A program made the position numbers and the translations under genes. A stretch of DNA of 32,000 nt, taken from assembly GCF_000172995.2 (NCBI RefSeq), contig NC_014729.1, positions 900,001 to 932,000 of the forward strand, read 5' to 3'. The stretch is from Halogeometricum borinquense DSM 11551 (GTDB lineage: Archaea; Halobacteriota; Halobacteria; Halobacteriales; Haloferacaceae). The notes beneath the pieces were generated by a model. It did no database searches. It had not been told where the DNA came from and saw only the letters and a program-made list of their open reading frames with translations. This document shows positions 18,583 to 28,003 of the stretch, one piece after another (position 1 is the stretch's first letter; each line of letters opens with the position of its first letter).

Positions 18583-19347
18583 CTACGCGGCGTTTGCCTC
18601 GGGAGACGCATCGGCATCGTCTTCGTCGAGGAGCAACACGGTGTACTGCCCCGAAAGCCACGCGAGACCGTTCAGGATGTTCAACGTCACGATACCGAGG
18701 ATCACGCCGAGTCCGGCAACAGCAAGCGCCTCCGAGAGCGTCGTCACCTGCCACGAGGTGAGTCGGAAAGCGGTACGGACGCCGACAAGGAGACCGTCCC
18801 AGCCGAGGAGCATCTGGGGTCTGAAGACGGCCGGTTCGGAGGTGACGATGCCGACGTACACGCCCGGTTGGTCGTAGACGAACGGGATCATGAGAAACGA
18901 GACGGCCGTCGTGAGAAGCGACATAATGGCGGTAAAGGAGATAAGTCCCAAGATGAGTTTGCTGGCCAGATAGAAGACCGCCTTCCACGTCCGCTGGCTG
19001 ACGACGAGTTGTTTCACTCGTTCGACGAGCGGGCCGTCGCTGGATGTCGTCGGTGAACGAACCGAGACGCCCAACAGGAGCGTCGCTAGTTTCCGTTCGA
19101 CGGAAGCGAGACCGAGCGCGGCCGCGAGGACGAACAGGAGGATTGGGATCCCGATGACGACGAACGTGAGACTGACGCCGACGCTAAAGCCGATAGAGAA
19201 GAACAGAAAGTAGAGCAGACCGAGCGGAAACGCCAGTGAGAGATACAGCAGATTCCGGTACGTTTGGAGCCGCAGTGGCGCGGTAACCGCTGACCGGACA
19301 GAAAGCGTCGGCCCAACTGACGCGCCGGAAAGAGCGTCGCTTAACAT
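18583..19347 (-). CDS. Sensor-like polytopic membrane protein, paralog A (resembles the putative-sensor TM domain family; to be verified)
   Basis: ATG at 19345-19347 with a GTTTATTT box about 30 nt upstream. It shares the blocks LRLQTYRNLLYLSLAFPLGLLYF, VVIGIPILL and LASVERKLA with the ORF at 20608-21282. About 6 TM helices and an acidic tail. Confidence 0.72.
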   Translation of the reverse strand: MLSDALSGASVGPTLSVRSAVTAPLRLQTYRNLLYLSLAFPLGLLYFLFFSIGFSVGVSLTFVVIGIPILLFVLAAALGLASVERKLATLLLGVSVRSPTTSSDGPLVERVKQLVVSQRTWKAVFYLASKLILGLISFTAIMSLLTTAVSFLMIPFVYDQPGVYVGIVTSEPAVFRPQMLLGWDGLLVGVRTAFRLTSWQVTTLSEALAVAGLGVILGIVTLNILNGLAWLSGQYTVLLLDEDDADASPEANAA

Positions 19348-19553
19348 GGTTTACGAGTGACACTCTCGCCGGGAGAAATAAACGTTCCGCGCAGTCGCTG
19401 AGCGAGAAAGTGACCGAACACTGTTACAGAGAGCGGCGTCAATGCCCCTGACGGAGCCGGATACGTGTGGAACATCAGCAGCCGCCATCGCTGCCAAATC
19501 AGCCATCGTCACTCTCTCAGCCGTCGTCGTGAGTTGCGTCCGAGGTGTACAGG

Positions 19554-19560
19554 TTTTTAT
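19554..19560 (+). promoter_or_regulatory. TATA-like box (TTTTTAT) for a leaderless wHTH operon transcript
   Basis: The box is centred about 28 nt upstream of the ATG at 19585, which is the usual haloarchaeal TATA-to-TSS spacing. Confidence 0.45.
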
Positions 19561-19584
19561 CGAATGACAGGAAAGCAGGAATCG

Positions 19585-19950
19585 ATGAGTACGGGCGACC
19601 GGGACACGGACGAGGAACTCGTAAGTCTCCTCGACGACCGGTACGCCCGCGAAATACTGGTCGAGACCCGTGAGGAACCACGGTCGGCCGACGCACTCAG
19701 CGAGGCGTGTGACGCGTCAGCTTCGACCATATACCGTCGCATCGAACGACTCCGCAAGCACGACCTGTTGGAGGGACAGCAGCGACTCGACCCGGACGGA
19801 CACCATTACGAGGTGTACGCCGCACGCCTCCGCAAGGTTACGATTGAACTGACGCCCGACGGGTTCACCGTGACGGTCGATTGCGAGGAGGACGAGGAAA
19901 CGGCCGCAGATCGGTTCACAAGCCTGTACGAGGAGTTGTCCGGAACATGA
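19585..19950 (+). CDS. Winged helix-turn-helix transcriptional regulator (ArsR/PadR-like, haloarchaeal type)
   Basis: ATG at 19585 (an alternative ATG is at 19564; the track start is a GTG at 19465). LLDDRYAREILVETREEPRSADALSEACDASASTIYRRIERLRKHDLL forms the HTH, followed by a wing and an acidic C-terminal domain. The stop overlaps the next start (ATGA). Confidence 0.78.
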   Translation: MSTGDRDTDEELVSLLDDRYAREILVETREEPRSADALSEACDASASTIYRRIERLRKHDLLEGQQRLDPDGHHYEVYAARLRKVTIELTPDGFTVTVDCEEDEETAADRFTSLYEELSGT

Positions 19951-20252
19951 TAGGCCAAGTGTCGGTAACGGGCGGGTCAGCTCCGGTGGTTCTCTCCGTC
20001 TTTACCCTGTTTGCAGCCTCGCTCGTCCTCTCGGTGTTGGTGACGTATCGCTTCGCACGCGGCTACCTCCGGACGGGAACTCGTCCGCTGTTACAACTGG
20101 CCGTTGGGATGCTCCTGCTTGCGGTGGTCCCGATACTTCTCAGAGTCTCTCTGACGACCGCTGGTATCGATTCGAATATGCGCATTCTCGCAACGAGCGT
20201 CAGCGAGTTGTTCGGTCTCCTGACTATCCTGTACACGATTTACGACCAATGA
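19947..20252 (+). CDS. Small 3-TM membrane protein, first of two tandem paralogs
   Basis: The ATG at 19947 overlaps the regulator's TGA (ATGA). After TM1 comes the motif TYRFARGYLRTG. The product is hydrophobic, about 100 aa. Confidence 0.7.
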   Translation: MIGQVSVTGGSAPVVLSVFTLFAASLVLSVLVTYRFARGYLRTGTRPLLQLAVGMLLLAVVPILLRVSLTTAGIDSNMRILATSVSELFGLLTILYTIYDQ

Positions 20253-20518
20253 CAATAGCCGTACTCTCCACCGTCACGACCGCACTCACCGTCGTCGTCG
20301 GCGTGTTCGTCGCGTCGCTGGCCTACCGCGGCTACCGTCGCAACGACAGCGAGACGATGCGTGCGCTCGTCGTCGGTATCGTCCTCATCGCTGTCGTTCC
20401 CGGTCTCGCCACGACCGGTCTGCCGGCCGTCGTGGAGGTAAACGACGCGGGAGTCCTCCTTGTCGCCCTTCTATCGCACACGCTTGGCCTCGTCGCAATC
20501 TATCGTTCGCTGGACTAA
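20249..20518 (+). CDS. Small 3-TM membrane protein, second of two tandem paralogs
   Basis: The ATG at 20249 overlaps the previous TGA (ATGA). After TM1 comes the motif AYRGYRRNDS, matching the position of the TYRFARGY motif in the preceding protein. Confidence 0.7.
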   Translation: MTIAVLSTVTTALTVVVGVFVASLAYRGYRRNDSETMRALVVGIVLIAVVPGLATTGLPAVVEVNDAGVLLVALLSHTLGLVAIYRSLD

Positions 20519-20521
20519 TCG

Positions 20522-20535
20522 TATTTATATTTTTA
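20522..20535 (+). promoter_or_regulatory. AT-rich element TATTTATATTTTTA (oligo-T terminator for the operon and/or TATA box for the next gene)
   Basis: This is the only strongly AT-rich run in the locus. It lies 4 nt after the stop at 20518 and about 75 nt upstream of the ATG at 20608. Confidence 0.4.
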
Positions 20536-20607
20536 GACGAGTTGCCCGCCCGGCGAGTCGTCGGGAGTGTATACCACCTTCTTGACCGATGTATCGAGTA
20601 GAGGCAG

Positions 20608-21282
20608 ATGACAGACACAGCATCTTCCACCGACAAAGGACTGATACGCCGATTTTTCGGCGTTCCGTTCCGCGTACAGACGTACAAGAACCTGGTGTAT
20701 CTCGCGCTCGGCTTCCCGTTCGGACTCGTCTCGTTCGTCACGTTGACATCCGGACTGACTGCCGGAGCGGGGCTTTCGGTAACGCTCATCGGCATTCCCA
20801 TTCTTTTGGCGACCATCGCCGCGGGAACTGCCTTGGCGAGCGTCGAGGCCGGACTGACTCGCGCCCTTGTCGGCGTGAACGCGTCGCCGCCTAAGGCTGC
20901 CGCTGCTGTCTCGAACGGAACCGCGTCCGATGACGATATCATGGCGGCGATCAAGCGGTTCCTCGCCGAGCCGTCGACATGGACGAGCCTCCTCGTCGCC
21001 TTCCTGTGGTTCATCTTCGGACTCGTCGGATTCGTCGCCCTGACGACGCTCTCGTCGCTGTCCCTCTCGATGCTCGGTGCGCCCGTACTCCACCTCTTCG
21101 CGCCGGGCGTGGATATGATGGTCGGCCCGTACGTCGTCGATACGCTGTCGGAGTCGGCCGCACTCACCGCCGTCGGTATCCCCCTGACGCTCGTCTCCCT
21201 CCACGCATTGAACGCGCTCGCGTACGCCTTCGGTCGTATCACGGCCTCGCTTCTCAACGTGGGCCAAACGGCCGAGAACTGA
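20608..21282 (+). CDS. Sensor-like polytopic membrane protein, paralog B
   Basis: ATG at 20608. The blocks FRVQTYKNLVYLALGFPFGLVSF, TLIGIPILL and LASVEAGLT are shared with 18583-19347. About 6 TM helices. Confidence 0.72.
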   Translation: MTDTASSTDKGLIRRFFGVPFRVQTYKNLVYLALGFPFGLVSFVTLTSGLTAGAGLSVTLIGIPILLATIAAGTALASVEAGLTRALVGVNASPPKAAAAVSNGTASDDDIMAAIKRFLAEPSTWTSLLVAFLWFIFGLVGFVALTTLSSLSLSMLGAPVLHLFAPGVDMMVGPYVVDTLSESAALTAVGIPLTLVSLHALNALAYAFGRITASLLNVGQTAEN

Positions 21283-21352
21283 TCTCCCGGTTCAGTTGCG
21301 TACCGCAGAAGAGTGATTTTGACGACCGACGACCGAGTTTCAGAACAATCGT

Positions 21353-22504
21353 CTACGAGATTTTCACGTCGCCGTTTTCCGACTGGACGCGGAGCGTCGG
21401 ACCACCGTCACCGACGGTACCCGACACGTGTTCGTCCGAGACTTCTGAGTCGTCGAGCGTCGCAGAGACGGATACGTCGCCGTGAGCGGTCTTCCCGACG
21501 ACGCGGGCGTTGAGTGACTCACCGAGCGACGCCCGGGCATCACCGTTTTCCGTCTCGATACGGGTATCAGACCGCAGGGCGGAGACCTCGGCGTCTACAT
21601 CCCCGTTCTTCGAGCTCACACCGAGGATACCGTCGCACGACTCCGTTCGCGCGTCCCCGTCCGTCGTGTGGACCCGAACGAATCCCTTGACACCGATGGC
21701 AGTCGCATCGCCGTCCTCGGTTCGAACATCGGCGTCTCCTGTCGTCTTGCGGGCGGTGGCGTCGCCGTCCTTGGTTCGAACATCGGCGTCCCCTGTCGTC
21801 TTGCGGGCGGTGGCGTCGCCGTCCTTGGTTCGAACGACGACGTTACCCGTCGTTTCGTGGGCCATCGCATCGCCGTCCTCGGTTCGAACATCGGCGTCTC
21901 CTGTTGTCTTGCGGGCGGTGGCGTCGCCGTCCTTGGTTCGAACGACGACGTTACCCGTCGTTTCGCGGGCCGTCGCATCGCCGTCCTCGGTTCGAACGAC
22001 GAGGGACTCGCTCGAATCCGAGTCGGAGCGACTCCCGGGTCCGACGAGGTCCTCCACGAGCACGTCACCGTTCTCCACTCGCGCCGATTCGACAACGATG
22101 GACGGATGGGCTTCGACCCGAAGTTGGACCGTCGGCAACGACCACAGTCTGATTCCGTCCTCGGTCTGGGTTCGCACGGTAGCCCGACCCTCTTCCGCCG
22201 TTGCTGAGAACGCCACCGCAGAGAGCGAACTGAGTATCGAGGACGACTTCTTTTCGACGTGCGCCCGAACGGTCCGCTCAGAAAGGTCGTCGTTCGGCGT
22301 GACCGTCACGTTACCGACATCGGCGGCAACCACTACTGATTGTACGTCCGTCAGGGTCTTTTCGTCCGTATCTCGCTTGCCGACGAACGGCCTTACTTTA
22401 CCGGTACAGCCCGACAGTCCGCCGATTCCGATAGCAGCAGCCGATAGAAATGCGCGGCGGCGGAGGGAGGGACTGCGAGAAACGTCAGTGGTAGCGTCGT
22501 CCAT
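21353..22504 (-). CDS. Tat-dependent lipoprotein with repetitive beta-helix-like domain (DUF4097 / putative adhesin-like)
   Basis: ATG at 22502-22504. Twin-arginine motif SLRRRAFLSAAAIG followed by a lipobox LSGC. The rest consists of repeated rungs of the type VRTxDGDATARxTTGD, ending GDVSVS...NGDVKIS. An ATATAATAC box lies about 75-85 nt upstream on the minus strand. Confidence 0.78.
   Translation of the reverse strand: MDDATTDVSRSPSLRRRAFLSAAAIGIGGLSGCTGKVRPFVGKRDTDEKTLTDVQSVVVAADVGNVTVTPNDDLSERTVRAHVEKKSSSILSSLSAVAFSATAEEGRATVRTQTEDGIRLWSLPTVQLRVEAHPSIVVESARVENGDVLVEDLVGPGSRSDSDSSESLVVRTEDGDATARETTGNVVVRTKDGDATARKTTGDADVRTEDGDAMAHETTGNVVVRTKDGDATARKTTGDADVRTKDGDATARKTTGDADVRTEDGDATAIGVKGFVRVHTTDGDARTESCDGILGVSSKNGDVDAEVSALRSDTRIETENGDARASLGESLNARVVGKTAHGDVSVSATLDDSEVSDEHVSGTVGDGGPTLRVQSENGDVKIS
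21702..21997 (-). repeat. In-frame tandem repeat: 54-nt unit x about 5.5, organised as a 108-nt higher-order repeat
   Basis: Units start at 21702, 21756, 21810, 21864 and 21918, plus a partial sixth. Units 21810-21863 and 21918-21971 differ at a single base by my reading (21858 t versus 21966 c). Each unit encodes an 18-aa rung. Confidence 0.9.
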
Positions 22505-22598: not shown

Positions 22599-23246
22599 TC
22601 AGGGGAGTACCGATGCAACGAGTGTTCGCAGATACTCGATTTCTTCGGGGAAAATGCCGTGTCCACGGCCCTCGTACAGATCGAACCTCGTGTCGGCGTC
22701 CATCCGGTCGAACGCCGCGATGGTTTCCTCCGCACGCGATTGGGGCACGTGCGGGTCGTCGTCGCTCACGCCGAGGAAGACCGGTGTGCCCGCCATCGAT
22801 CCCTCGAAGTCGAATGCCGCTCCCTCAGGTCCGACGAATCCGCCCGAGAGAAGGACAACACCGCCGTAGCGACTTGGGTGCTGCGCCACGTACGAGGAGG
22901 CGAGACAGGCACCCTGCGAGAAGCCGACGAAGATGATCTTCTCGTCGTCGAGGCCAGTCGTCTCGCGCGCCTGTTCGACTGCCCGATTGAGATGCAACAG
23001 CGCCGACTGGTAGTGCGGTTGGTTCGACTCGGTCGGTGCCATAAACGAGTTCGGGTACCACGTTCCGCGCTGGGCCTGTGGAGCGACGTAGTGGACACCG
23101 TCATCGTGGAACTCATCTGCAAATGCTAGCATTCCGCGCGCTGTCGCACCGCGGCCGTGGACGAGAACGACGACGGCTTCGGCGTCTTCTGGCTCTGTGC
23201 CCCCAGTCAGAATCGGCTGGTCAGCGTGTGGATCAGCGGCCGACAT
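22599..23246 (-). CDS. Phospholipase/carboxylesterase-family alpha/beta hydrolase
   Basis: The ATG at 23244-23246 shares one base with the upstream TGA. Nucleophile elbow GFSQGA. VVLVHGRGAT and the C-terminal GRGHGI motif are present. Confidence 0.85.
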   Translation of the reverse strand: MSAADPHADQPILTGGTEPEDAEAVVVLVHGRGATARGMLAFADEFHDDGVHYVAPQAQRGTWYPNSFMAPTESNQPHYQSALLHLNRAVEQARETTGLDDEKIIFVGFSQGACLASSYVAQHPSRYGGVVLLSGGFVGPEGAAFDFEGSMAGTPVFLGVSDDDPHVPQSRAEETIAAFDRMDADTRFDLYEGRGHGIFPEEIEYLRTLVASVLP

Positions 23247-24184
23247 CAGTTGGACACCTCTCCGGCGACGGCATCGAGTGGTGGCAGGTGCGCCGCAATC
23301 TCCTCGCGGTCGTCCGCCAACCACGGGGGAAGTTTGAGTTCGGAGCCGAGCGATTCGACCGACTCGTCGGCGGTGAATCCGGGCCCGTCGGTGGCTATCT
23401 CGAACAGCACGCCCCCGGGTTCGCGGAAGTAGATCGACTCGAAGTACTGCCGGTCTTTCTGCTGTGTGACGTACTGCCCCGCCGCAGTGAGTTTTTCGCG
23501 CCATTCCATCTGCGTCTCCGTGTCGGGCGCGCGAAACGCGACGTGGTGAACCGTCCCGGTACCGGGGCGGCCGCGAGGCGGTTCCCGTTTCAGCAGGTCT
23601 ACGACGGTTGCTCTGTCGCCGTGGGCGACGTAGCGCACGCGGTCGTCCGCTTCGTCGCCGCGTTCGAATCCGAGGAGTTCGAGGACGCGACCCGTCGCAT
23701 CGGGGGCTTTAGATTGGAGCGTCACGCCGAAGAACCCGCGAATCGCGGCCGCTTCGGGAACTGGGCCGCCTACCCACGGTTCGATATCCGTCTTCCCTTC
23801 GATCAGTTCGAGCGGCTGACCGTCGTCGTCCTCGAACGGGAGCACCTCCGCACCGAATCGGTCTTCGACTTCGCCGACGGTCACATCGTGATCGGCGAAT
23901 CGCTCCCGCCAGTAGTCAAGGCTCCCTTCGGGGACGGCAAACGACGTTGCGACTGCCTGTCCACGGCCGGGACGACCGGGGCGGCCTTCTCCGAACGGGA
24001 AGAACGTCAGAGCGGTTCCGGGCGACCCCGTCTCGTCACCGTAATAGAGGTGATACGTGTGCGGGTCGTCGAAGTTGACTGTGCGCTTGACGAGGCGAAG
24101 TCCGAGAACGTCAGTGTAGAATCGGACGTTCTCGTTCGGATCGTCCGCAATCGCGGTGACGTGGTGGATTCCTGTTGTGTTCAT
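23246..24184 (-). CDS. VOC/glyoxalase-family ring-cleaving dioxygenase (MhqO/MhqE-like)
   Basis: ATG at 24182-24184 (MNTTGIHHVTAIADDPNENVRFYTDVLGLRLVKRTVNFDDPHTYHLYYGD). A second VOC module contains VHHVAFR. Confidence 0.85.
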   Translation of the reverse strand: MNTTGIHHVTAIADDPNENVRFYTDVLGLRLVKRTVNFDDPHTYHLYYGDETGSPGTALTFFPFGEGRPGRPGRGQAVATSFAVPEGSLDYWRERFADHDVTVGEVEDRFGAEVLPFEDDDGQPLELIEGKTDIEPWVGGPVPEAAAIRGFFGVTLQSKAPDATGRVLELLGFERGDEADDRVRYVAHGDRATVVDLLKREPPRGRPGTGTVHHVAFRAPDTETQMEWREKLTAAGQYVTQQKDRQYFESIYFREPGGVLFEIATDGPGFTADESVESLGSELKLPPWLADDREEIAAHLPPLDAVAGEVSN

Positions 24185-24248
24185 CGTGATCGAGGACTGG
24201 CGCGTTGCCAGTTTCACTCTGATACTTAGTACGGAACCGAAACCATAT

Positions 24249-24266
24249 GTACGTTCCCGGACGTAC
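24249..24266. promoter_or_regulatory. Inverted repeat GTACGT-N6-ACGTAC in the divergent promoter region (candidate HxlR operator)
   Basis: Perfect 6-bp arms. Additional GTACG-containing copies lie at 24230-24238 and 24262-24269. The element sits between the dioxygenase start (24184) and the regulator start (24286). Confidence 0.35.
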
Positions 24267-24285
24267 GGGACACCAGGTGACACGA

Positions 24286-24690
24286 ATGCCCCCGGAAGCA
24301 GACGACAAATACAACGAGCAGGCGTGCAGCGTCATCGACTCCATCCAACAGATCGGTTCGCAGTGGCGACTTATCGTCCTGCACGACTTACAGGACGGTG
24401 AAAAGCGGTTCAACGAACTGAAACGCTCTACCGGATCGAGTTCGCGGACGCTCTCGCGCGTCCTCGACGACTTACAGGAACTCGGATTCGTCTCGCGGCG
24501 ACTCGAAGAGGATGCCCCCGTGGCGACGTACTACTCACTCACGCCGAAAGGCGAGTCGCTCGCACCCGTCTTCGATGAGATAAACTGCTGGGCCGACGAG
24601 TGGTTGACCGAGACGCCCGCGGGCGAGGATCCAGCAACAGTCGATGGCGAAAGCGAGCACGCCGAGACGGCGACCGCCGAAAGCGAGTAA
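24286..24690 (+). CDS. HxlR-family (DUF24) winged-helix transcriptional regulator
   Basis: CSVIDSIQQIGSQWRLIVLHDLQDGEKRFNELKRSTGSSSRTLSRVLDDLQELGFVSRR is typical of HxlR. An alternative ATG at 24247 lies inside the palindrome. Acidic C-terminal tail. Confidence 0.85.
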   Translation: MPPEADDKYNEQACSVIDSIQQIGSQWRLIVLHDLQDGEKRFNELKRSTGSSSRTLSRVLDDLQELGFVSRRLEEDAPVATYYSLTPKGESLAPVFDEINCWADEWLTETPAGEDPATVDGESEHAETATAESE

Positions 24691-27244: not shown

Positions 27245-28003
27245 ATGAGATTTACATTACTCGGGACTGGTGACGTACTTGGTGTCCCACCGCCGTTTCA
27301 GACACTGGCAGATGCTAATGCGGCAGCGCGTCGCCGTCGATGTGGCGCGCTCATTGAGACCGAGACGACAACACTCCTGCTCGATGTTCCACCGGAGTTC
27401 CGTGACGGGATTCGACAGGCTGACGTCGGTAGCGTAGACGCGGCGTTCGTGACCCACTGGCATCACGATCACGTCGGCGGCATCGATGACTTAGCTCTTA
27501 CCGCCCGGTTCCTCGATATTCCACTCTATTTGACGGCGACTGCGCAGGACCGGTTTGCCCAGGAGAAACCGTACCTAACCGATTCGGTCGCCATCCGCAA
27601 CCTCATGCACGGGGAACCGGTCACAGTGGGTGATATCGAAATCACTCCCATTCCGGTCGCTCATGATCGCCCGGAGTGTGATACGCTCGCGTTCCGACTT
27701 GAAACGGGCACGGAAACAATGGTATACGCGCCGGACTTCGAGAACTGGTGTCCCGATATGCCGGGCGGTAAGATGTATACCAACGCTGATCTCGCGGTTC
27801 TCGAAGCCACGCCAGCCATCGCCCCAGAGCTGTTGTCGTCAGACGTACCAACCCCGGACCCAGTGACAAAAGCGGCGGCATCACGAACGGTTCTGACCCA
27901 TCTCAACGAATACATGCTGGGGAAGAGTACGGCGACGTTGGAAGCAATGGCGGCTGAGGAGGGGTACGAGTTGGGCGAGGATTTTGCCAGTTACACGGCC
28001 TAA
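27245..28003 (+). CDS. MBL-fold metallo-hydrolase (PhnP/PqqB-like)
   Basis: Metal-binding motif THWHHDHVGG. N-terminus LLGTGDVLGVPPP. Later residues: AHDRPE and VLTHLN. Confidence 0.85.
   Translation: MRFTLLGTGDVLGVPPPFQTLADANAAARRRRCGALIETETTTLLLDVPPEFRDGIRQADVGSVDAAFVTHWHHDHVGGIDDLALTARFLDIPLYLTATAQDRFAQEKPYLTDSVAIRNLMHGEPVTVGDIEITPIPVAHDRPECDTLAFRLETGTETMVYAPDFENWCPDMPGGKMYTNADLAVLEATPAIAPELLSSDVPTPDPVTKAAASRTVLTHLNEYMLGKSTATLEAMAAEEGYELGEDFASYTA

Follow-up and report, generated by a model that had tools for sequence, protein, structure and literature searches.

A conserved gene set of Halobacteria that may signal across the membrane without a histidine kinase

Introduction

In bacteria, small standalone winged helix-turn-helix (wHTH) regulators are found in HAAS-PadR-like dyads with PspC, LiaI-LiaF-TM or Toastrack partners, and Ravi et al. 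(2024; PMC11237479) put these dyads forward as an alternative to two-component signalling. Here we describe a locus of the haloarchaeon Halogeometricum borinquense DSM 11551 that resembles them in layout. It lies at positions 18583-22504 of a 32,000-nucleotide stretch of the chromosome, which we analysed as a whole (the window; coordinates are window positions throughout). Its six genes encode two PF13796 proteins (SensorA and SensorB, or Sa and Sb), a small regulator (R), two DUF7521 proteins with three transmembrane (TM) segments each (DUF7521-1 and DUF7521-2, or D1 and D2), and a lipoprotein with a DUF4097, or Toastrack, domain (T). We suggest that the six genes may form one signalling module.

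The likeness to the HAAS-PadR dyads lies in a small standalone wHTH protein beside a membrane-linked partner, often in the company of Toastrack proteins and multi-TM sensors. The two systems are not homologous. DUF1700, DUF1129 and DUF1048 have no match at E ≤ 0.1 in the six window proteins, and R scores 17.5 bits with the PadR family (PF03551), below the cut-off of 27. The partner here is a bare 3-TM DUF7521 protein, the regulator is ArsR/Phr-like and the Toastrack protein is an exported lipoprotein of the twin-arginine translocation (Tat) type. Moreover, HAAS-PadR was described in bacteria, whereas the module described here was seen only in Halobacteria. A first reading of this DNA, made from its letters and translations (the sequence-only reading), had stated that PadR-type regulators pair with membrane partners and Toastrack proteins, and the literature confirms this (PMC11237479). 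The regulator here is itself not of the PadR type, by the score above and by the best fold match, the Pyrococcus heat-shock regulator Phr (2P4W).

Several other systems share single features with the locus. The Bacillus LiaIH-LiaGFSR locus is likewise autoregulated and brings together a sensor of the intramembrane type, a Toastrack protein (LiaG/LiaF) and a transcription output. Unlike it, the module here contains no histidine kinase, response regulator, PspA/LiaH or LiaI, and only the Toastrack domain is common to both. LiaG, which the sequence-only reading had named as a DUF4097 protein of the lia locus, is indeed a membrane-anchored DUF4097 protein in the literature, and its DUF4097 domain is described as extracellular. 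PF13796-HisKA_3-HATPase kinases, which we take to be actinobacterial, carry the same four-helix membrane domain at the N-terminus; in the module the domain stands alone, and there is no kinase except a neighbouring PAS kinase in Halosimplex. A third point of comparison came from our own searches. In bacterial triads of a sigma factor of the extracytoplasmic function (ECF) type, an anti-sigma-like protein and PF13796, a standalone PF13796 protein of ~225 amino acids (aa) follows a transcription factor and its small membrane partner. These triads, seen in Anaerolineales-like bacteria, differ in that the output is a sigma factor, the partner has one TM helix and no Toastrack gene adjoins. We know of no published description of them.

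In archaea, the best profile and fold matches to R are the ArsR-like wHTH proteins Phr and PH1932 of Pyrococcus (2P4W, 1ULY). Both bind palindromic operators and regulate their own expression. Phr is ~200 aa long and is not known to have a membrane partner, whereas R has 121 aa with a short tail, and the identity is only ~18-24%. To our knowledge, archaea have no sigma/anti-sigma pairs, and very little is known about how they sense the state of the membrane or surface layer (S-layer). In the literature searched we found no described haloarchaeal envelope-stress pathway. That an archaeal HTH regulator can be tied to the membrane is known from ArnR/ArnR1 of Sulfolobus (PMC6396743), in which the HTH and TM parts belong to one polypeptide; in the module here they are separate proteins of unrelated families.

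Results

Gene content of the locus

The block contains exactly the six open reading frames (ORFs) that the sequence-only reading had described, at the positions given (Table 1). A look-up matched all six proteins exactly to called genes in DSM 11551 and in other H. borinquense strains, where the public records name them 'hypothetical', 'sensor domain-containing', 'ArsR family/winged helix-turn-helix', 'DUF7521 family' and 'DUF4097 family'. The domains guessed earlier, namely two PF13796 proteins, a wHTH protein, two small TM proteins and a Tat-lipoprotein with DUF4097, were all recovered by Pfam searches and inspection of the lipoprotein N-terminus. So were the beta-helix-like rungs of the lipoprotein, which correspond to 5.4 tandem 18-aa units at 21708-21997. 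The block had also been said to hold no enzyme, and in Pfam and NCBIfam none of the six proteins matched an enzyme, transporter or Psp/Lia core family, including PspA/LiaH, PspC and LiaI-LiaF-TM. The stop codon of R overlaps the start codon of D1 by 4 nt (ATGA), and the stop codon of D1 overlaps the start codon of D2 in the same way.

Table 1. Positions of genes and sequence elements of the locus in the window. BRE, transcription factor B recognition element; PWM, position weight matrix; TRF, Tandem Repeats Finder.
Feature	Position	Strand	Remarks
SensorA (Sa)	18583-19347	-	254 aa; PF13796 'Putative sensor', E 1.1e-30, 107.2 bits (cut-off 28.2), full model length
BRE/TATA of SensorA promoter, GGAACGTTTATTT	19376-19388	-	centred ~32 nt upstream of ATG
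Candidate operator 1, CGCAGTCGCTGAGCGAGAAAGTGAC	19390-19414		PWM score 14.9 (background 99th percentile 8.9); 1 nt from SensorA BRE
TATA-like box TTTTTAT of regulator operon	19554-19560	+	centred ~28 nt upstream of ATG 19585
Regulator, alternative start	ATG 19564	+	would give 128 aa
Regulator (R)	19585-19950	+	121 aa; HTH_20 (PF12840) 34.8 bits (cut-off 27); divergent from SensorA
DUF7521-1 (D1)	19947-20252	+	101 aa; DUF7521 (PF24365) 36.6 bits (cut-off 27)
DUF7521-2 (D2)	20249-20518	+	89 aa; DUF7521 (PF24365) 46.8 bits (cut-off 27)
Candidate operator 2, ACGAGTTGCCCGCCCGGCGAGTCGT	20537-20561		D2-SensorB spacer, directly after AT-rich TATA-like stretch 20522-20535
SensorB (Sb)	20608-21282	+	224 aa; PF13796 E 1.3e-27, 97.3 bits (cut-off 28.2), full model length
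Toastrack (T), DUF4097 (PF13349)	21353-22504	-	383 aa; E 1.4e-16, 61.1 bits (cut-off 22.9), two stretches; convergent with SensorB
Tandem 54-nt (18-aa) repeat in Toastrack gene	21708-21997	-	5.4 copies; TRF, 81% matches, no indels
Tat signal peptide and lipobox of Toastrack	22406-22504	-	residues 1-33, ...SLRRRAFLSAAAIGIGGLSGC; read from sequence

Conservation of the gene set in Halobacteria

A scan of one genome per GTDB species yielded 407 stretches that encode a relative of the regulator. The best 80 loci, with up to 10 kb of flank on each side, were translated in all reading frames and searched with profiles grown from the six window proteins. These loci are the closest relatives of one regulator, with several species per genus, and the fractions given below describe this orthologous group rather than all Halobacteria.

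Homologs of R occur in many haloarchaeal genera at 50-83% identity. The regulator and two DUF7521 genes are present together in 78 of the 80 loci. Seventy loci have enough flank to judge the remaining genes. At least one Sensor (PF13796, within a few kb) is found in 62 of them and at least two in 45. Toastrack genes occur in 37 and never without a Sensor (Fisher p 0.0015, kinship ignored). Sensor and Toastrack are combined in 19 of 35 genus-level groups. SensorA orthologs are divergent from the regulator gene in 45/70 loci, and a sensor gene lies downstream of D2 in 52/70.

Precisely the arrangement seen in the window (<Sa R> D> D> Sb> <T, arrowheads marking direction) recurs in 22 other loci. 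Halorubrum keeps the set in changed orders, either <T <Sb <Sa R> D> D> or R> D> D> Sb> T> Sa>. Haloarcula has the Sensor-containing form, seen in the genomes of three Haloarcula species and on a Har. marismortui plasmid. Clustering of the neighbouring ORFs showed no gene family outside the module common to more than ~18 loci, and the flanking genes are not conserved; this all-against-all clustering merged the module families and antisense ORFs into one cluster and was used only to show that there is no other widely conserved family. The set is thus kept with differing flanks and in rearranged orders, indicating that it travels as a unit. Co-conservation had been named beforehand as the test of the proposal, and the set proved to be kept in many genera.

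Haloarcula and Natronomonas show a variation on the set. Directly after SensorB they carry a second, paralogous wHTH gene without a DUF7521 gene of its own (L082:5671-6006; likewise in loci L008, L063, L064 and L032), and it occupies the place that the Toastrack gene has in other genera.

The regulator

The AlphaFold2 (AF2) model of R (64 sequences, predicted local distance difference test (pLDDT) 86) is a winged helix whose wing is extended into a four-strand sheet and followed by a short amphipathic C-terminal helix with the conserved motif AADRFTxLYEEL. Neither the model nor the fold comparison revealed a ligand-binding domain. In Foldseek the best match is Phr (E 1e-5, template modelling score 0.64), followed by ArsR/SmtB-type repressors; CzrA, SmtB and NolR are among the matching folds. 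The sequence profile of R matches PH1932 (E 3e-7). With the ArsR/SmtB metalloregulator model (NCBIfam NF033788) R scores 14.4 bits, far below the cut-off of 55, and no CxC motif or alpha-5 His/Asp cluster is visible in the regulator alignment. The recognition helix and the wing are nearly invariant in this alignment.

DUF7521 proteins and the regulator-DUF7521 dyad

D1 and D2 each contain three hydrophobic segments, and the N-terminus of D1 is predicted to lie outside. The first loop is basic and conserved, reading GYrrt in D1 (GYLRTGTR in the window) and AYRGYRRNdS in D2 (AYRGYRRNDS in the window, nearly invariant). By the positive-inside rule this loop should face the cytoplasm.

The gene order is tightly kept. 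The R stop and D1 start codons overlap by 4 nt (ATGA or GTGA) in 70 of 79 loci, whereas ATG or GTG is found at only ~2% of positions there. D1 and D2 overlap or are at most 2 nt apart in 62 of 79 loci. The dyad of regulator and DUF7521 also exists outside the full module. Six distant R paralogs on plasmids were examined (Haloferax volcanii pHV3 and pHV4, Halorhabdus tiamatea, Halorubrum PV6, Halobacterium hubeiense and Haloterrigena turkmenica). In all six a single DUF7521 gene stands directly behind the regulator gene, no Sensor is present and the neighbours vary. The pHV3 pair is HVO_B0192/B0193 (E 2.5e-35 with the regulator profile and 2.5e-20 with the DUF7521 profile). These two genes are co-transcribed as an mRNA of ~1,077 nt and induced on repression of cdrS (PMC8406309), and in a delta-qarA quorum-sensing mutant they show the strongest up-regulation of all genes (bioRxiv 10.1101/2025.11.10.687552).

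A search of 1.84 billion representative proteins with the DUF7521 profile returned only 251 clusters; a tblastn search of plasmids with DUF7521-2 gave 2 hits and was too insensitive. At least 22 of the best 150 DUF7521 clusters are D1-D2 fusions of 176-267 aa with two DUF7521 stretches (for example P0287, P0290, P0291, P0304 and P0338). The gene of one such fusion (L094:4651-5735) overlaps its HTH_20 regulator gene by 4 nt and has no Sensor or Toastrack gene nearby. Such fusions suggest that D1 and D2 act together, and the two proteins probably form a 6-TM unit.

Genes for SHOCT-domain proteins lie near the distant dyads on the Halorubrum and Halobacterium plasmids (L091:1968-2372, L092:320-691 and L092:2878-3273). 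SHOCT-like domains have been linked with Toastrack systems in a survey of the phage shock protein (PSP) response.

The PF13796 sensors

SensorA and SensorB are paralogous (32% identity, E 3e-30). A second BLAST segment aligns SensorA residues 101-146 with SensorB residues 6-51, indicating an internal 2+2 duplication. The AF2 model of SensorA (51 sequences, mean pLDDT 85, predicted template modelling score 0.76) has four long helices (27-63, 66-92, 118-152 and 204-240) of 27-37 residues, and each pair of them is preceded by a short helix. A beta-rich insert of ~50 aa, modelled with lower confidence, separates TM3 from TM4. The distribution of Lys and Arg puts both ends of the protein and its central loop on the cytoplasmic side and the insert on the outer side. 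In SensorB most of the insert is missing, and the TM3-TM4 loop is short. No similar solved structure was found for SensorA: the best Foldseek match in the PDB has an E-value of 0.9, and a PDB sequence search was also empty.

Haloarchaeal PF13796 homologs are 214-282 aa long and contain PF13796 only, and the window sensors have no HisKA_3 or HATPase_c domain. Outside Halobacteria, the matches to SensorA include a PF13796-HisKA_3-HATPase kinase (P0257), in line with the statement of the sequence-only reading that PF13796 is fused to histidine kinases, and standalone proteins of ~225 aa. On 4/4 bacterial contigs examined, one of them labelled Anaerolineales, the standalone PF13796 gene lies directly behind an ECF sigma gene and a gene for a protein of 106-108 aa, with differing flanks (L084:5127-6693, L087:4123-5681, L088:4129-5684 and L089:4120-5678). 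In the one copy that was translated, the N-terminal segment of the 106-108-aa protein resembles an anti-sigma factor domain and is followed by a single C-terminal TM helix.

The Toastrack lipoprotein

The N-terminus of the window Toastrack protein (SLRRRAFL...GGLSGC) combines a twin-arginine signal with a lipobox. The two features are present in 43 of the 45 Toastrack proteins from the window and related loci (consensus TRRRLL...LAGC[ST]G), indicating that the Toastrack domain of this module lies outside the cell with a lipid anchor. This matches the extracellular position suggested for LiaG. Ravi et al. (2024; PMC11237479) proposed that Toastrack as a rule is intracellular and lies beneath the membrane; that definition does not fit the window protein or the 43 of 45 copies with export signals. 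The PSP survey reported only occasional Toastrack transfers to Euryarchaeota.

The 54-nt repeats lengthen the beta-helix of the window protein by about five rungs, and the protein is ~80-100 residues longer than most orthologs. The orthologs measure ~280-370 aa as stop-to-stop frames, mostly ~300, and all three H. borinquense cluster members have 383 aa. The match to the LiaG equivalog (NCBIfam NF049997) reaches 41 bits against a cut-off of 285 and covers only the C-terminal 105 residues. A PDB sequence search with the Toastrack protein gave no match.

A palindrome shared by the module promoters

The distance of the BRE/TATA element from the SensorA ATG implies a leaderless or near-leaderless mRNA, and that of the TATA-like box from the regulator ATG implies a leaderless transcript (Table 1). 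Both elements recur elsewhere. The strongest motif in the spacers between Sa and the regulator is CGAACGTTTATTT (at most 3 mismatches, oriented towards Sa), which is found in ~30 of 55 loci at a fixed distance of ~30 nt before the ATG, and a T-run stands at the same distance before the regulator in related loci as in the window.

Next to these promoter elements lies a palindrome of 25 bp, cACnGTT(T/G)C-N7-G(A/C)AACnGTg in the family. It was spotted by reading the sequences upstream of the regulator by eye; six sites then served as the seed of a 25-column PWM, which was refined with the sequences before the regulator. In several genera the palindrome borders on the BRE/TATA. In Halosimplex, for instance, CACGGTTTCCGAGTCGGAAACCGTG is followed after 7 nt by TTTTATA. 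The second copy in the window scores 8.1, between the 95th (4.6) and 99th (8.9) percentiles of the background.

With the PWM, 32 of 81 loci have a site upstream of R or Sa at a threshold at which ~1.2 would be expected; since these very sites were used for training, the count is circular. The regions upstream of Sb and T were not used for training. Upstream of Sb, 24/54 score above the background 95th percentile and 13/54 above the 99th; upstream of T, the counts are 13/44 and 5/44. None of 200 column-permuted PWMs, still palindromic and of the same composition, reached these counts. Eight further loci, most of them distant paralogs, also played no part in training; in four of them a site with a score of 11.1-17.3 ends 29-40 nt upstream of the R start. 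On pHV3 a site scoring 22.3 lies ~320 nt upstream of the annotated HVO_B0193 start, just downstream of a LolA-like gene (L083:23141-24171; record 223140-224170). This position fits the published length of 1,077 nt for the HVO_B0192/B0193 mRNA (PMC8406309). R is the candidate binder of the palindrome, since no other DNA-binding protein accompanies the motif throughout and the recognition helix and wing of R are nearly invariant.

Two other sites were rejected. The apparent palindrome CGAC-N12-GTCG, which emerged from k-mer, dyad and expectation-maximization searches, is an artefact that lies inside the N-terminal coding sequence of the regulator. A PWM match at 27549-27573 (score 12.0) falls within a hydrolase ORF of the metallo-beta-lactamase fold (27245-28003) and probably arose by chance.

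Flanking genes and other annotations

The locus is flanked by unrelated genes, for a metallophosphoesterase upstream and a carboxylesterase downstream, and further for an M24 peptidase, a glyoxalase-fold protein and an HxlR regulator. The HxlR-type regulator (24247-24690, plus strand) also passes the HVO_A0261_N model with 35.2 bits (cut-off 35). Its gene is divergent from that of the two-domain glyoxalase-fold protein (23246-24283), and the two look like a separate small regulatory pair. A reading of the region as a defence island was discarded, since PADLOC matched nothing but the generic HTH portion of Csa3/CARF models, in the regulator. A structured RNA was discarded as well, the region being free of any Rfam match.

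Discussion

We propose that the six genes work together as a signalling module of Halobacteria that spans the membrane, regulates its own expression and needs no histidine kinase, and we put the probability of this reading at roughly 45%. What the analysis shows is which genes make up the set and how widely they are kept, the coupling of their translation, the signals for export, the predicted folds and topology, and the enrichment of the motif. The universal core of the module would be a dyad, in which the small ArsR/Phr-like R and a 3-TM DUF7521 protein come from one mRNA with coupled translation; DUF7521 is duplicated in this subfamily. R would bind the 25-bp palindrome (GTT(T/G)C-N7-G(A/C)AAC with CACnG/CnGTG flanks) that abuts the BRE/TATA of the module promoters. 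The D1/D2 pair may hold R at the membrane, or modulate it there, through the conserved basic cytoplasmic loop. Upon a membrane or cell-surface cue, Sa and Sb would alter the state of D1/D2, and T would join them as an extracytoplasmic partner or co-sensor that contacts the outside loop of Sa. The resulting change in R occupancy of the palindrome would then change the expression of the whole module, closing a feedback loop. In this scheme we infer every protein-protein contact, the binding of R to the palindrome, the sign of the regulation and the nature of the signal; the envelope as the sensed quantity is suggested by analogy.

That the Sensors of Halobacteria feed into the regulator-DUF7521 dyad is argued most strongly by the link of PF13796 to three kinds of transcription output and by the place of its standalone form, next to a transcription factor and the small membrane partner of that factor. 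The conserved members of the module include no histidine kinase, as the sequence-only reading had proposed. There is none in the window block, and in a search that included no scan aimed at receiver domains, kinase-like ORFs turned up near 18 of 81 loci, in places that vary. Only in Halosimplex is a kinase consistently adjacent.

The main competing explanation, which we regard as somewhat unlikely, is that the locus is an effector operon. R would sense the cue directly, like a stress regulator of the Phr type, and regulate its own expression, and Sa, Sb, D1, D2 and T would be products that repair, stabilise or remodel the envelope rather than transduce signals. The palindrome upstream of Sa, Sb and T makes these genes probable targets, and the best fold match of R is a heat-shock regulator. 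No fusion of R to a membrane protein is among the inspected hits, and LiaG, the best-known Toastrack protein of an envelope-stress locus, has no assigned regulatory role. The strong induction of the Haloferax volcanii paralog pair in cdrS-knockdown and delta-qarA strains is also what an effector operon could display. On the other hand, PF13796 serves elsewhere as an input, fused to a histidine kinase or placed behind ECF sigma/anti-sigma pairs. The dyad is invariant and translationally coupled whatever its neighbours, which is typical of a regulator and its partner, and DUF7521, a bare 3-TM protein with a conserved basic cytoplasmic loop, has no obvious effector domain. The signalling and effector readings both fit the placement of the motif, and both could hold in a feedback loop.

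We consider metal or small-molecule homeostasis improbable. Here an ArsR-type R would sense a ligand and control the Sensors and a DUF7521 channel or exporter, with the lipoprotein as an extracellular binder. R does belong to the ArsR/SmtB-like HTH_20 group, with a fold like those of CzrA, SmtB and NolR, and one distant dyad, in Halobacterium hubeiense, lies ~1.5 kb from the gene of a heavy-metal P-type ATPase. However, the neighbours of the distant dyads are heterogeneous, no transporter family matches the membrane proteins of the module, and R falls well short of the metalloregulator model. The alignment of R shows an invariant Cys42 and a nearly invariant His74, which could be taken as ligands, but in the AF2 model Cys42 sits in the HTH turn and His74 at the tip of the wing. 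These positions presumably contact DNA rather than being known ArsR metal sites. A chance neighbourhood of unrelated hypothetical genes is refuted: the set is kept in many genera with different flanks and survives rearrangement, its promoters share a motif and its translational coupling is conserved.

Several observations weigh against the signalling module that we favour. Eight of the 70 loci consist of R-D-D with neither Sensor nor Toastrack nearby; together with the distant dyads, which also lack them, they indicate that Sensors and Toastrack are dispensable for the working of the dyad. The 80 loci, close relatives of one regulator with several species per genus, are phylogenetically non-independent. 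Phr, the closest structural relative of R, is not known to need a membrane partner. The inspected regulator, Sensor and DUF7521 hits include no fusion of R to DUF7521, a Sensor or a Toastrack protein, or of DUF7521 to a Sensor or Toastrack protein. The palindrome upstream of Sa, Sb and T fits these genes as outputs equally well. It was detected in only ~40% of the loci, is weak or absent in the closest relatives of the window (L001-L005), and is thus not universal as modelled. In the window its symmetry is weak, as in candidate operator 1, and there is no copy upstream of the Toastrack gene. In eight Halosimplex species, a PAS_4-HisKA-HATPase_c kinase gene lies ~85 nt downstream of Sa in a module of the order R> D> D> Sa>. 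Given this genus-specific link, the module may not be kinase-free everywhere. The Halosimplex kinase has 677 aa with a DUF1349-like tail (L072:12143-14176, plus strand; also in L037, L050, L056, L065, L068, L073 and L074).

The signalling module could also be an instance of something broader. The wHTH-DUF7521 dyad might represent a general, kinase-independent signalling principle of Halobacteria, a counterpart of sigma/anti-sigma pairs with interchangeable membrane inputs. PF13796 and an extracellular Toastrack protein would in this case report the state of the membrane or S-layer through a shared operator, and PF13796 would be a portable input for three unrelated types of output, a histidine kinase, an ECF sigma/anti-sigma pair and the wHTH/DUF7521 dyad. 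We offer this extension tentatively and consider it rather doubtful.

The control of a transcription factor from the membrane via a small partner is known in kind. What is new here is that the parts are different and specific to Halobacteria. The sequence-only reading had named no known functional description of such a gene set in Halobacteria, and we found no description of the module in the literature searched, where DUF7521 appears in one paper, in passing, and PF13796 in two unrelated ones. The module is made wholly of families without assigned function (PF13796, DUF7521 and DUF4097), and its predicted operator and genetic targets make it directly testable. Haloferax volcanii carries the core dyad as HVO_B0192/B0193, which responds strongly in cell-division and quorum-sensing mutants. 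If the proposal is true, the module would be a concrete and widely conserved candidate for membrane and surface sensing in archaea. PF13796 would gain a role as a portable membrane input domain, and Toastrack domains would be able to act outside the cell, which would qualify the proposal that they are intracellular.

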